From Spirochaetia bacterium (GTDB lineage: Bacteria; Spirochaetota; Spirochaetia; SZUA-6; Bin103), in contig CBDBDQ010000005.1 in the NCBI GenBank assembly GCA_965203905.1, positions 6,816,001 through 6,880,000 of the forward strand: a stretch of 64,000 nt of DNA. Direction: 5' to 3'. Below, piece by piece: positions 1,021-8,061 of the stretch (its first letter is position 1; each line of letters opens with the position of its first letter). The notes under the pieces were generated by a model, which was not told the DNA's origin, ran no database searches, and worked only from the letters and a program-made list of their open reading frames with translations. The translations under genes and the position numbers were made by a program.

Positions 1021-1230
1021 GCGGATGACACACACGACTGACACACCCGTTCAGTCCCACTATCGTCTCAAGTGCGAGCCATGGTCCACCCACGACGAGT
1101 TACGGCGCTTCCAGAAACCGGAAGGCCAACATGTTACGATCGGCGCCAACATTCGAGTGCAGCGCCGACGCGGGAATCTTTAGTCTCGTTGAGTCTACAG
1201 CAAGGGTTACTGGAAGTGTCTGGAGTCGAT

Positions 1231-1254
1231 GATGGTAACTATGTAGTTGCCATC
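1231..1254. promoter_or_regulatory. Inverted repeat upstream of the DUF6338 gene (possible operator or RNA hairpin)
   Basis: GATGGTAACTA-tg-TAGTTGCCATC: 11-bp arms with one G.U-type mismatch, about 30 nt before the ATG at 1287. Confidence 0.4.
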
Positions 1255-1286
1255 CAGGGAATCTCGAACTGGAAGACTACAAACGA

Positions 1287-1943
1287 ATGCATACATTACT
1301 GAACTCCGAGTCACTACCATATCTCATTGTCTTTGTGTTGCCAGGGTACCTCTCCTGGAGCGTATGGCGAGTCTTGTTTCCGGTTCGGACAACGCGTGTG
1401 GCCGATAGTCTGATTGCCATCGTTATGGCTGGGTTGGTCAATAGCTTTCTTGTTGGCTGGGTGATACCCGAAGTACGAGTGCTCGACAGTCTGTTCGGGC
1501 AAGTGGCCGCGTTCGCGGGTGTGTACCTGGTTGCTCCTGTCCTGTGGCCACTTATCATACGAGCGCTTCTTCAGATCCCGTTCGTGAAGCAGCGTATCGT
1601 GCATCCGATCCCGAAGGCGTGGGACTATTTCTTCGGATTGCACGTCCCATGTTTCGTCCTCGCACGACTCAAGAATGGCGCGCTTTTGGGAGGAGTCATG
1701 GGAAGTCGGTCATTCGCCTCGTCCTACCCGAGCGACGAAGATCTCTACTTGGAGCAGCTATGGAGTGTAACAGACCAAGGGCAATTCCTGTCTCCCCTTC
1801 CGGATACGAAAGGAGCTTTGATCTCTCGCAGCGATTGCGAGTACATTCAATTCATCGAGATGATGAGGAGGAGCAATGGCAACGAAAGACACACCTCGTC
1901 CGCTTCCGGAAAACCTAAGAAAGGGCTACCAGCCCCTCGGTGA
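1287..1943 (+). CDS. DUF6338 family membrane protein
   Basis: N-terminal TM with FVLPGY; about 3 TM helices; then PIPKAWDYFF, LKNG...GG, SFASSYP..EDLYLEQLW, which I recognise as DUF6338-type motifs. Confidence 0.8.
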   Translation: MHTLLNSESLPYLIVFVLPGYLSWSVWRVLFPVRTTRVADSLIAIVMAGLVNSFLVGWVIPEVRVLDSLFGQVAAFAGVYLVAPVLWPLIIRALLQIPFVKQRIVHPIPKAWDYFFGLHVPCFVLARLKNGALLGGVMGSRSFASSYPSDEDLYLEQLWSVTDQGQFLSPLPDTKGALISRSDCEYIQFIEMMRRSNGNERHTSSASGKPKKGLPAPR

Positions 1944-2139
1944 CGACTACACACCCATACAGCGACGGGGCTACCAGCCGAATGAAAGCGGCTCCGGAGA
2001 GATTATCCCACCTCCGGCCGGTGCGATTGCTGGAGATGTGAATCCACCCGCACCCACAGCAGAACCACAGAGCGATAGTTCGCAGCAAGCCGACACGGCA
2101 CCCCCCGCCGGCGCATCGGCGTCTGACGACGAGACCTAA
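1876..2139 (+). CDS. Small disordered peptide with two (R/K)-GYQP repeats and a Pro/Ala/Asp-rich tail
   Basis: Strong SD (GAGGAGGAG 1865-1873) right before ATG 1876; overlaps the 3' end of DUF6338; motifs LRKGYQP and QRRGYQP. Confidence 0.65.
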   Translation: MATKDTPRPLPENLRKGYQPLGDDYTPIQRRGYQPNESGSGEIIPPPAGAIAGDVNPPAPTAEPQSDSSQQADTAPPAGASASDDET

Positions 2140-2237: not shown

Positions 2238-2591
2238 ATGTGGCAGAGCTTCTTGGGAGTGGCGCCCAGCCACCTGGACGCCACCTTCTTCCGCATGCGC
2301 TTCGATCGCTTGATCGTGCTGCAGCAGAAGTACCTGCGCGCCATGGCCGAACTCGGACCGGGACCGCACCAGATCGGGCAGATCGCCACCACTCTGGGCG
2401 TCGGAGCAGCATCCGTGGCAACGGTCCGGCAGCAACTGGTGAACAAGGGCATGGCCTGGAGCCAGCGCCGCGGGGAGACCGCGTTCACCGCACCGCTGTT
2501 CGACAGCTTCTTGAAACGCCAGATGCCGACCCTCGAAAAACACGTACCGGCGCGCCGCGCACGATCCACACGGCGTCGGTATCGTTCATGA
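2238..2591 (+). pseudogene. C-terminal wHTH fragment of an AAA ATP-binding protein
   Basis: LDATFFRMRFDRL...KYLRAMAELGPGPH...KGMAWS..RGETAFTAPLFDSFLKR resembles the C-terminus of AAA_16/22-type ATPases; no P-loop region upstream. Confidence 0.65.
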
Positions 2592-5479: not shown

Positions 5480-6016
5480 TTATCCAGGGCCGATGGAGTC
5501 AAGGAACGCGCTCACCGCCTCGCGGATCGCTTGGGGCGAGAGTGCCGGGTACTTGGCATAGGCGGAGTCAGGAATGGCACCGACGAGCGCCCGGAAGCGG
5601 GCTGCATCCACCAGACCGGTATCAATGAAGTGGCGGGCGTCCTCCAGGTCACGCCGGAATCCGCGGACGACTTTCGAGAGCACTTGCGAGTACGGATCGT
5701 AGTGAAAGAAGCTGACACCGCCGAACCTTGCGATGAAGAGGTGACGGTCGCCGGCACCGGCCAGCGCGGGGACGAAGTGCTCTGGCCGCGCAAACTCCAC
5801 GTTGATCCGCTGCGTCTCCTTGATGCGCTGAATGTCGATGAACACCGCCTCGTCATCGGCGTACAAGTCCACGTCGATCGTCGATTCCCGCCATCCTCGC
5901 TCCACGGCCGTCCCGCCGCCCACCACGAAGACCCGGAAGTACCTACGGGACGGTGCCGCCTCGGCGAGGCGCTGCATGAAACCGAGGAGGCGCTGGCGTG
6001 TGACGCTCTCTCGCAT
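5480..6016 (-). CDS. DUF6036-like nucleotidyltransferase (putative toxin)
   Basis: VFVVGGGTAV...RESTIDVDL (GG + DxD Pol-beta NTase motif); SKVVRG..RDLED. Start set at MRESV (6016). Confidence 0.75.
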   Translation of the reverse strand: MRESVTRQRLLGFMQRLAEAAPSRRYFRVFVVGGGTAVERGWRESTIDVDLYADDEAVFIDIQRIKETQRINVEFARPEHFVPALAGAGDRHLFIARFGGVSFFHYDPYSQVLSKVVRGFRRDLEDARHFIDTGLVDAARFRALVGAIPDSAYAKYPALSPQAIREAVSAFLDSIGPG

Positions 6017-6020
6017 CCCG

Positions 6021-6479
6021 CTACGTGCGCGCCTCGCGGCGAGTTGCGGTCGTTCTGGCGACCGAGCACGCGTCCGCAAACGAAACGATCAGGCGCAGGT
6101 GGGCGTTGTAGCGCGCATGTCCCAGGTCGCCTGCGACGGACGAAAGCAGCCGATAGAGCCGCCGCTCCGGGTCGGGCTGGGCGTTGGTAACCGGCACTCC
6201 CTCACGGCGCAGCCGCGGCGCCGCCAGCGAGACCAGCAGGCTCGCGGCGCTGGTGCGGCCGGACGCCAGGTCGGCCAGTCCCTCGTCGACCACGTCGCCA
6301 CCGGGCAGCGCAAGATCCGCGAACCGGCTCGCTCCGAACCGTCTGCGCATCCAGCGCGCCGTGGCCGCGCGGCGCGCTATCTCCGTGCGGCGGCCGGGAG
6401 CAAGGCTTCGGGCACGCGCACGGCCACCCGTGCGCCCGAATGTCCGGTAACGCTCGCGAACATCCTCCGGCAGTTCCAC
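6021..6479 (-). CDS. Conserved hypothetical partner of the DUF6036 NTase (putative antitoxin) with a basic N-terminal GGRARA...EIARRAA.ARW segment
   Basis: Ends 4 nt before the NTase start; GTG start 6 nt downstream of a TATACT -10 box; LPGGDVVDEGLADL...LLVSLAAPRLR...HARYNA motif. Confidence 0.65.
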   Translation of the reverse strand: MELPEDVRERYRTFGRTGGRARARSLAPGRRTEIARRAATARWMRRRFGASRFADLALPGGDVVDEGLADLASGRTSAASLLVSLAAPRLRREGVPVTNAQPDPERRLYRLLSSVAGDLGHARYNAHLRLIVSFADACSVARTTATRREART

Positions 6480-6531: not shown

Positions 6532-6804
6532 ATCGGTATCGGCCAGCGTGAGGACACAGCGCAACCGCGCCGACTTGGCGGCGGACGTGGGGCGCCTGGA
6601 TGAGGAAGCTGCCCTGAGCCGTGCTCCTGTGCCATAATCGGTGTGTGCGGATCTTCATCTTTGACTGCGCGCCCAACCGCTCGCGGAGCCACAGGTTCTG
6701 CCGCCGCCAGGAAACGGCCGGTATACCGCCGCACAGCGAGTGGGGTATGTGATGATCGAATACGCACGTTGTATGGTTAGACGAGGTTGTAGAAGGATGG
6801 GCAA

Positions 6805-8061
6805 GTGATCGACCGTATCACCATCGGCAACTTCAAGAGCCTGCGTCGGGTCGATCTGTCTCTGGGCAGGCTGAATGTGTTGGTCGGCACGAACGCCAGC
6901 GGGAAGTCGAACTTTCTTGAAGCCTTGCAAGTCTTGCAGGGGATCGGGAGCGGGTTCACGATCAGCGAGATACTTGACGGCCGGCCGGCGAGCGCTACGA
7001 CCGAAGTCTGGTATGGAATTCGTGGTGGAAGTTCACGAACTTGTTATGCCGGCTCCGCTGGAGACAGCGCGGTGGTGCTGTCTGTGCAAGGCCGTCTAGT
7101 CGAAGATCCCCACCGTCAATGGGAGTTTTCGATCACCTTTCTGCCAGCAGCGGGGCAAGTCATGCGTGAATCTCTCAGAGTGGGGGATCTCATCTACGAC
7201 ACTGAGGAAGTGAGCGGCTCCGCTTCCGCCGGGACGTTACGTGTGCGCCACCACTATGTCGGCAGGGAGCAACCGCACGTTGCCGAGTCCACTAACTCCA
7301 AACCCGTACTCGGGGGGTTTGCCGGTTTGAAGTTTTTCGGATTTTCCGAGGACAGCGTGGGCTTCGACCAAGGTCCATTCTACACAGAGGGAGCCGACCT
7401 TGCGCGCCGAGTGGCAGCCCAATTGGCGAATATCCAACGGTTGGATCCTTCCATTCCATTGCTTCAGCAGTACTCAACCATGAAAGACGCCAAGCGCATG
7501 GGAGATCACGGCGAGAATTTTGCGGCTGTCGTAAACACGATCTGTCAGAATGAACAGACCAAGGACGCATTCCTGTCATGGCTTCGTGAACTCCGTCCCG
7601 AAGAGGTTGACGACGTCGGTACACTGCCCGGCGCTGTGGGCGATTCACTGTTTATGCTACGCGAGAGCCATCGGGAATATCCCGCAACGGTACTGAGCGC
7701 GGGAACGCTGCGGTTTGCCGCGGTGACTGCGGCATTCTTCCAACCAGACATGCCGAACATCATGACTATCGAAGAAGTCGAGAATGGAATCCATGCCAGT
7801 CGCCTTCGCTTGCTCTTGGAGTTGCTCCGAAGTCAGACGAAAGCCGGCGCGACGCAGGTATTCGTTACCACACATTCACCCAGTGCACTAGCATGGCTTG
7901 ATGAGTCCGAATACGACAAGACGTTTCTCTGCAAACGGAATGAGTCAACGGGTGAGTCGACGATACGGCCGCTCACTGATGTTCCCCGTTTTCTGGAGGT
8001 AGCAAAACACCACCCCGTCGCGGATCTGTTCGCAGAAGGCTGGCTTGAAGCGGCCCTGTGA
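6805..8061 (+). CDS. ABC-type AAA ATPase (AAA_21/AAA_15-like), putative defence or TA ATPase
   Basis: Walker A GTNASGKS, signature LSAGT, Walker B/D-loop IEEVENGIH, H-loop TTHSP. Confidence 0.85.
   Translation: MIDRITIGNFKSLRRVDLSLGRLNVLVGTNASGKSNFLEALQVLQGIGSGFTISEILDGRPASATTEVWYGIRGGSSRTCYAGSAGDSAVVLSVQGRLVEDPHRQWEFSITFLPAAGQVMRESLRVGDLIYDTEEVSGSASAGTLRVRHHYVGREQPHVAESTNSKPVLGGFAGLKFFGFSEDSVGFDQGPFYTEGADLARRVAAQLANIQRLDPSIPLLQQYSTMKDAKRMGDHGENFAAVVNTICQNEQTKDAFLSWLRELRPEEVDDVGTLPGAVGDSLFMLRESHREYPATVLSAGTLRFAAVTAAFFQPDMPNIMTIEEVENGIHASRLRLLLELLRSQTKAGATQVFVTTHSPSALAWLDESEYDKTFLCKRNESTGESTIRPLTDVPRFLEVAKHHPVADLFAEGWLEAAL

Follow-up and report, generated by a model that had tools for sequence, protein, structure and literature searches.

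A small proline-rich gene family follows DUF6338 genes in many bacterial phyla

The stretch of DNA analysed here (the window) comprises 64,000 nucleotides (nt) of a Spirochaetia bacterium (GenBank assembly GCA_965203905.1, contig CBDBDQ010000005.1, positions 6,816,001 to 6,880,000 of the forward strand), and close to its start it carries two overlapping genes: one for a protein of the DUF6338 family (Pfam PF19865) and a small one that begins within the 3′ end of the first and encodes a product of 87 amino acids (aa). The small open reading frame (ORF) is a genuine conserved gene under selection, and its pairing with DUF6338 is conserved across many phyla in both search directions, whether loci are collected by DUF6338 or by the motif of the small protein. 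The features of the locus are as follows.

1038 to 1066, plus strand: candidate promoter-like site, CTGACA, a 17-nt spacer and TATCGT (one found by consensus scan vs. 0.4 expected)
1050 to 2140, no strand: low-GC islet with the two-gene module (guanine-plus-cytosine content, GC, 0.50-0.56 vs. 0.65-0.72 in the flanks)
1231 to 1254, no strand: imperfect 11-bp dyad, GATGGTAACTA-TG-TAGTTGCCATC, 33 nt 5′ of the DUF6338 ATG
1287 to 1943, plus strand: DUF6338 gene, 218 aa, PF19865 match
1314 to 1571, plus strand: three predicted transmembrane helices (residues 10-30, 38-64 and 69-95; AlphaFold2 model)
1599 to 1868, plus strand: predicted Sm/LSm-like small beta-barrel domain, residues ~105-194 (Foldseek and VIA-align on the predicted model)
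1865 to 1873, plus strand: Shine-Dalgarno sequence of the small ORF, GAGGAGGAG, inside the DUF6338 coding end (GGAGG core at 1867-1871)
1876 to 2139, plus strand: small partner gene, 87 aa, product predicted to be intrinsically disordered
1923 to 1979, plus strand: two GYQP motifs, encoded with an exact 12-nt direct repeat, GGGCTACCAGCC, at 1923-1934 and 1968-1979
2002 to 2037, plus strand: second conserved motif, IIPPPAGAIAGD, the local form of [IV]xPP[KQP]xG..G[ED]

The two genes share 68 nt at a +1 offset, and the Shine-Dalgarno sequence ends 2 nt 5′ of the small-ORF ATG at 1876. A first-pass annotation, made from the letters of the window, had described an AT-richer block of two genes, a DUF6338 protein and an 87-aa ORF with its own Shine-Dalgarno sequence inside the DUF6338 3′ end, and these descriptions hold: the drop in GC spans ~1050-2100, the ribosome-binding site lies in the coding end of the upstream gene, and residues 7-191 of the larger protein match PF19865 with an E value of 8.7e-37 and 127.1 bits vs. 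a cut-off of 26.5, so that the Pfam gathering threshold is passed, over profile positions 5-201 of 205. A Pfam search of this protein at E ≤ 0.1 returned nothing besides DUF6338, and no match to MscS.

Pairwise ratios of nonsynonymous to synonymous differences (pN/pS) of the small ORF range from 0.13 to 0.56, with substitutions concentrated at third positions. Its product contains 15 P, 11 A and 8 D, includes IIPPP and VNPP, and displays GYQP twice, as LRK-GYQP and QRR-GYQP. The family to which it belongs is defined here as proteins of 45-100 aa, encoded right after DUF6338, in which one or more GYxP units are followed by [IV]xPP[KQP]xG..G[ED]; in alignments A2 and A4 the conserved core is GYxP(x1-3) and then this second motif, and the window peptide fits the definition. 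The order of parts is a basic polar N-terminus, often MAK, then one to three GY[QRET]P units, 8-25 polar residues, [IV]xPP[KQTP]xG..G[ED] and a polar tail. The last GY[QRET]P unit is nearly invariant, which corresponds to the second copy in the window, whose G, Y and P are invariant or nearly so family-wide; the commonest form of the second motif elsewhere is PPKGGTGE, and proteobacterial versions end in PPKKP. The family peptides have almost no Cys, a hydrophilic N-terminus and no signal peptide. The repeated dibasic-GYQP pattern that had been singled out earlier is present in the window, but the dibasic pair is not conserved: the residues before GY vary among R, K, E, D, G and H, and the dibasic “processing site” is therefore not a feature of the family. 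Likewise, the Pro/Ala/Asp composition of the presumed disordered tail is as described, but a conserved motif, the IIPPPAGAIAGD segment, had been taken for part of that tail.

The window protein has no match in Pfam, NCBIfam, PADLOC or PHROGs, and 28 diverse family peptides gave no Pfam family at E ≤ 1 and no meaningful NCBIfam match. A profile of eight peptides retrieved 25 protein clusters of 48-113 aa, all unnamed and devoid of Pfam domains, one of which (P0007) includes the window product; gene callers therefore do predict the small ORF, and RefSeq annotates partner homologues on plasmids, contrary to the earlier expectation that annotation pipelines would miss it. The broad peptide profile (A4), searched against 1.84 billion representatives, returned 199 proteins or clusters at E ≤ 1e-3. 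Among the 150 listed of these 199, 144 have lengths of 36-98 aa and six of 111-616 aa; two of the long ones (P0104 and P0126) are repeat-protein false positives and four (P0076, P0082, P0153 and P0166) are real carriers of the motif. A search of the ESM Atlas with a family peptide gave a best score of 0.76 and no lead, and a literature search found no occurrence of PPKGGTGE, PPQGGTGE or KGGTGE, while all matches to GYQP concerned the SARS-CoV-2 spike. A mixed alignment of peptides with DUF6338 (A6) was discarded, as the peptides were misaligned onto the barrel.

In the home genome (8 Mb), which contains two DUF6338 copies, the A4 profile at E ≤ 0.01 matches exactly two places, one right after each copy. 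The second copy (G000:C5:111451-111798) is truncated at its N-terminus and has lost the transmembrane part; the 57-aa ORF that follows it (module G000:C5:111451-111982; locus L002:1504-2032) contains RRGYTP and IVPPKGG, is intact, and shows a pN/pS of 0.13-0.14 vs. intact relatives. DUF6338 occurs in nine of 61 related genomes, and each of the eight genes with a strong match in these relatives is accompanied by a small ORF that lies at its stop and in the same orientation.

A wider, DUF6338-seeded set of 27 loci was collected with alignment A3 from contigs of one genome per species. According to the record titles, these loci belong to Spirochaetia (the closest, 60% identity), Clostridium and another member of Bacillota, Latescibacterota, Gemmatimonadales, Rhodothermales, Entotheonella, Chitinivibrionia, Acidobacteriota and Terriglobia, Balneolaceae, Planctomycetaceae, Ktedonobacterales, Eremiobacterota and Vulcanimicrobiota, and Actinomycetota. 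When a peptide profile built from the close peptides only (A2) was compared with the 4022 six-frame ORFs (≥20 aa) of 40 loci, the 28 best matches (E < 0.6) were all either the ORF directly 3′ of DUF6338 or, in L016, the C-terminus of DUF6338 itself, and the first off-target match appeared at E 0.59; the window peptide ranked first (E 1.2e-24). Within the 27 loci, the partner profile scored at E < 0.01 in 13, at E < 0.1 in 15 and at E < 1 in 18, which bears out the expectation that a conserved small ORF with a GYQP-type motif lies 3′ of DUF6338 homologues. In the opposite direction, the motif [IVP]xPP[KQ]GGTGE was used to collect 22 loci from metagenome contigs, and a DUF6338 profile match lies directly 5′ of the motif-bearing ORF in 15 of them, including two pairs of identical sequences; at a further locus of this set, L059, inspection by eye shows a DUF6338 remnant that is split by IS66-like insertion-sequence (IS) ORFs. 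None of the AWDYFF-clade loci seen has an intact DUF6338 without a small ORF. The partner occurs in one to three tandem copies per locus: on a viral contig (L064:2219-3232), DUF6338 is followed by three tandem partners in alternating frames (E 1e-7 to 6e-7), and an Acinetobacter pittii plasmid has two that are annotated.

The small ORFs of the relatives start with ATG, GTG or TTG, each preceded by a GGAG-type site, which lies 5-10 nt 5′ of the start in all eight close loci and in most of the 20 distant ones. Often the start codon shares an ATGA with the DUF6338 stop or lies a few bases beyond it. This arrangement indicates that the two genes are translationally coupled. A programmed frameshift that would fuse both ORFs was considered and ruled out, because the frame of the small ORF is offset from that of DUF6338 by different amounts at different loci, and every small ORF comes with a start and a ribosome-binding site of its own. 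Natural in-frame fusions do occur: P0076 consists of a DUF6338 barrel followed by the peptide, which may be a sequencing frameshift, and L016:1992-3022 encodes a 254-aa DUF6338 protein with an RGYRP..PPLGGSG tail, with a separate 38-aa partner ORF 150 nt downstream. At four loci a broken DUF6338 gene stands beside an intact partner, the damage being a truncation (L002), a frameshift (L010/L012/L023 of genome G021), an internal stop (L043) or an IS insertion (L059). A functional tie between the peptide and DUF6338 is supported, because their pairing is conserved both ways, their translation is coupled and in-frame fusions join them in nature. To this extent the earlier proposal that the peptide is a substrate, ligand or inhibitor of the DUF6338 protein is partly supported, while the processed precursor and the secreted signal that it also entertained fare poorly, as discussed below.

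The AlphaFold2 model of the DUF6338 protein (mean predicted local distance difference test, pLDDT, 82.3) places two short helices after the three transmembrane helices and then a beta domain at residues 122-191, and the last 20 residues, which are overlapped by the small ORF, are disordered in it. In the DUF6338 alignment, AWDY.F, G136 and S142-F143 are invariant and SS.P and D.YLE nearly so. As modelled, the C-terminal domain has an Sm/LSm-like fold. Every top match that Foldseek lists against the PDB is an Sm, LSm or Gemin protein (E ~0.01, probability 0.96-1.0, template modelling scores on the target of 0.45-0.65, ~80 aligned columns), and the matches listed by VIA-align, an all-against-all structural search, are mostly LSm, SmAP and Hfq, with Z scores of 7.5-5.7 over residues 105-194 and a best match of Z 7.5 over 70 residues at a root-mean-square deviation of 3.0. 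Both searches start from a predicted model, and their scores are middling and their lists uniform; MscS is not among the top matches listed by either. The N-terminus has no Lys or Arg, loop 1 has 2, loop 2 has 1 and the segment after the third helix has 3; this charge distribution suggests an N-out, C-in topology, which would place the barrel in the cytoplasm, on the same side as the partner that has no signal peptide.

No third gene family recurs among the 82 ORFs that flank the pair in the 27 loci and the relatives. Genuine defence genes are neighbours in four of the 27: a type I restriction endonuclease and PDC-M24 in L018, a HEC-01A/AriA-like ATPase and an HmaB methylase in L019, an HmaA/TmtA-like gene in L020, and type IV and type IIG enzymes in L022. 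DUF6338 is found on 19 plasmid records. In the Proteus penneri plasmid pPp47 (L073), the cargo that comes after TnsD and TnsE of a Tn7-like element begins with DUF6338 and a gene for a 59-aa partner and continues with genes for TIR-domain, caspase-family and DUF3883 proteins. In L064, the module is found on a predicted viral contig of 31.6 kb, with Lar-like and ParB-like genes next to it. The patchy distribution, together with copies on plasmids, on a Tn7-like element and on a viral contig, indicates that the two-gene module is horizontally mobile.

In the window, the module sits at a synteny break, because homology with the orthologous loci of two congeners, identified by an M1-peptidase gene at 87% identity, begins only at ~2517. 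A search on either side of the module for direct or inverted repeats, as signs of cassette ends, gave none that was convincing. A 117-aa ORF at 2238-2591 (plus strand) has weak matches to winged-helix regulators (E 0.03-0.08) and resembles the C-terminal remnant of a larger gene, and the congener homology starts inside it. The 11-bp dyad noted earlier upstream of DUF6338 exists: its arms, at 1231-1241 and 1244-1254, are complementary at 10 of 11 positions, and of 500 shuffles of 1021-1286, 1% yield an equally good dyad. The dyad is a local rather than a family feature, because comparable dyads occur 5′ of DUF6338 in just two of 24 other loci. An Rfam scan of 900-2700 gave a single match, below threshold and unrelated, and the predicted RNA fold 3′ of the small ORF has a z score of -0.42. 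Farther into the window, a second stretch of lower GC (0.54-0.59) extends over 6600-8000, and an ORF at 5480-6079 (minus strand) matches the DUF6036 nucleotidyltransferase-like family (E 7.9e-6), a type that is frequent in toxin-antitoxin-like pairs.

The partner motif is also present on other proteins. On a 68-kb viral contig (L065:1939-3144), a RecA/UvsX-like recombinase (PF00154, E 1.3e-39), which is encoded near a resolvase, an amidoligase and a family-B polymerase, carries at its C-terminus YDPLKEGYTP..IKPPQGGTGE and then KKRGRP. In another Spirochaetota genome (G143), a 225-aa ParB-like protein (L075:1398-2075, minus strand) has RGYQP..SSPPKGGSG near its C-terminus. The motif also occurs on a 310-aa phage membrane or coiled-coil protein (L063) and on P0153, P0158, P0166, P0200 and P0201, whose family is unassigned; two of the motif-bearing proteins have an AT-hook-like RGRP stretch beside it. 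That phage proteins for recombination and partition bear this motif may point to an interface between phage and host.

In the best reading, the two genes form a self-contained mobile unit, and the disordered partner would dock on the DUF6338 barrel and control the membrane protein, much as in a toxin-antitoxin or defence system; the probability of this reading is put at roughly 0.45, slightly short of even odds. The first gene would encode an inner-membrane protein with three transmembrane helices and a cytoplasmic Sm/SH3-type barrel that exposes an invariant aromatic patch (AWDYFF, SFASSYP). The second gene, translated in a coupled manner from the ribosome-binding site inside the end of the first, would supply a disordered protein of 45-90 aa, of which the conserved parts are one to three GYxP units and then [IV]xPP[KQP]xG..G[ED]. 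The proline-rich motif may dock on the aromatic face of the barrel, and docking may keep the membrane protein inactive or regulated. The pair would then comprise a membrane effector and its peptide inhibitor, either toxin-antitoxin-like or a small module for defence or exclusion. Topology, docking, the direction of the control (inhibition) and the role in the cell are what we infer, and the earlier suggestion of a ligand, inhibitor or antitoxin of a membrane effector is in this sense a best guess.

Several observations weigh against this model. With regard to the pairing, the three weakest DUF6338 matches in the relatives (L008, L009 and L013) have no partner ORF. In nine of the 27 DUF6338-seeded loci (L020 and L032-L039) the small ORFs are variants, Pro-rich and with a G-aromatic element, that were recognised by eye and to which the profile gives no support; those of Eremiobacterota and Vulcanimicrobiota (L034-L037) and of Actinomycetota (L033, L038 and L039) read, also by eye, EGHKG..SAPAP, sometimes twice in tandem, and GGY..G..PP.P. 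Six of the 22 motif-seeded loci carry the motif in larger unrelated proteins without an adjacent DUF6338, and there is none beside the motif carrier of G143, whose sole DUF6338 match is weak and on another contig. With regard to docking, the motif tail of the L016 fusion is undocked in its predicted fold, at a low confidence (pLDDT of 49-67); a complex prediction for DUF6338 residues 96-200 with peptide residues 1-65 scored 0.14 vs. a mark of 0.32, which speaks neither for nor against docking. With regard to a role in conflict, 23 of the 27 loci have no defence gene within 2 kb, some pairs sit between housekeeping genes (dnaN/gyrB; alaS/yceG), and neither gene matches a PADLOC 2.0.0 model at E ≤ 0.1. 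Furthermore, two small overlapping genes with a patchy, mobile distribution are traits of type II toxin-antitoxin systems, but the module is unlike the classical ones because its partner has no DNA-binding fold (no domain match among 28 peptides) and no upstream operator is conserved (two of 24 loci).

The occurrence of the motif on unrelated proteins without an adjacent DUF6338 suggests that its receptor may be something other than DUF6338. The small protein might then be the active part, its motif binding a conserved cellular hub associated, for example, with the nucleoid, replication or proteostasis, while DUF6338 serves as a tether, sink or turnover factor and phage proteins use the motif to reach the same hub. 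The pattern GYxP..PP[KQ]GG[TS]G on the recombinase, the ParB-like protein, L063 and the five unassigned proteins named above, the AT-hook-like stretches beside two of these motifs and the survival of the partner where DUF6338 is broken are all in keeping with such a role; nevertheless, it is considered unlikely, as stand-alone small proteins are found in genomes almost only after DUF6338, in-frame fusions join the motif to DUF6338 itself, and no candidate hub came up. It is also tempting to speculate that DUF6338 is a membrane-anchored receptor for a portable motif (GYxP, then PPKGGTGE), in which the partner on the barrel would keep a pore-forming ring closed until phage proteins that bear the motif (RecA-like, ParB-like or membrane proteins) displace it and the membrane collapses, unless these proteins act as disarming decoys. 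This elaboration is a long shot; if true, it would amount to abortive infection of a new kind, based on motif sensing, and to the matching counter-defence.

The pair might instead have no part in conflict and be a housekeeping or stress module of the membrane, such as an Sm-like ring in the envelope stress response or an MscS-like channel; the small protein would be an accessory subunit. The modelled architecture, in which an Sm-like beta domain comes after three transmembrane helices, does recall MscS, and the neighbours at many loci are ordinary. By contrast, the patchy distribution among relatives and the pseudogenes, the low-GC islet, the occurrence of the module on plasmids, on a Tn7-like element and on a viral contig, and the absence of an MscS match in Pfam at the threshold given above all make such a role rather improbable, even though a study of Pseudomonas stutzeri describes similar small proteins as abundant in normal growth (PMC10433244). 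The remaining alternative, a multi-core precursor of a ribosomally synthesized and post-translationally modified peptide (RiPP) or a secreted signal that is processed or exported by DUF6338, was raised by the first-pass annotation and could appeal to a repeated short motif, to a membrane protein as neighbour and to a remark in the same paper, unchecked here, that DUF6338 occurs in biosynthetic gene clusters (PMC10433244). It is now highly improbable. There is no conserved modifying enzyme, protease or transporter among the 82 flanking ORFs; the pairs of basic residues vary and Cys is almost absent; the peptides have neither a signal peptide nor a leader-and-core layout, their conserved parts being the motifs themselves, in an order that is fixed across phyla; and the N-terminus is hydrophilic and the barrel probably cytoplasmic, judging from the charge distribution. 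In P. stutzeri, moreover, the small proteins are detected nearly full-length, at 98-100% coverage (PMC10433244).

DUF6338, a widespread family with no assigned function, gains from this analysis a predicted membrane-tethered Sm-like fold, a partner family that is absent from domain libraries and a motif short enough to be synthesised. The whole pair occupies ~1 kb and can therefore be easily cloned and tested.

Compared with known systems, the module of membrane protein and putative peptide inhibitor shows partial likeness to several. Residues ~105-194 of DUF6338 are predicted to form an N-terminal helix and then bent strands, as in Sm, LSm and Hfq proteins; unlike these, the domain would be anchored in the membrane by three transmembrane helices and displays no evident Sm1 or Sm2 sequence motif. 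MscS consists of three transmembrane helices, an Sm-like beta domain and a C-terminal alpha/beta domain. DUF6338 resembles it in the predicted succession of three helices and a cytoplasmic Sm-like domain, but has no sequence match to MscS and no counterpart of the alpha/beta domain. The CBASS effector Cap15 combines transmembrane helices with a beta-barrel, and the present module is similar to such membrane-effector pairs of toxin-antitoxin or abortive-infection type in being compact, mobile and patchy, in the predicted union of a membrane span with a small barrel, and in the occasional survival of an intact small gene beside a broken effector gene. It differs from them in that PADLOC returns no match and that nucleotide-signalling genes, a DNA-binding antitoxin and a conserved operator are all lacking. 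The conserved aromatic cluster on a small beta-barrel and a disordered partner with a PP-then-G core are reminiscent of SH3, GYF and WW domains with their PxxP-type ligands, a likeness of architecture.

The closest parallel comes from P. stutzeri, in which three unannotated Pro-rich small proteins of 36, 47 and 41 aa are encoded together with a DUF6338 gene in what is predicted to be one operon (PMC10433244). These proteins (SEP1, SEP5 and SEP2) were detected by digest-free mass spectrometry with 44-114 peptide-spectrum matches and 98-100% coverage (PMC10433244, Table S5), and they are described there as abundant under normal growth, not conserved beyond the species and possibly new genes. The operon has the layout seen in the family, with one to three tandem, frame-alternating Pro-rich ORFs right after DUF6338 as in L064, and the proteins begin with GW.G, a G-aromatic element, and continue with Pro runs and PPPPKK-type ends that resemble the PPKKP ends of the proteobacterial plasmid partners. 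The difference lies in scope, as the P. stutzeri proteins were called species-specific by their discoverers, whereas the partner described here is a family that extends across many phyla. By this comparison, which was made by eye, the P. stutzeri small proteins are probably distant members of the family, and what was regarded as a peculiarity of one species may be re-read as a probable instance of a module shared by many phyla.

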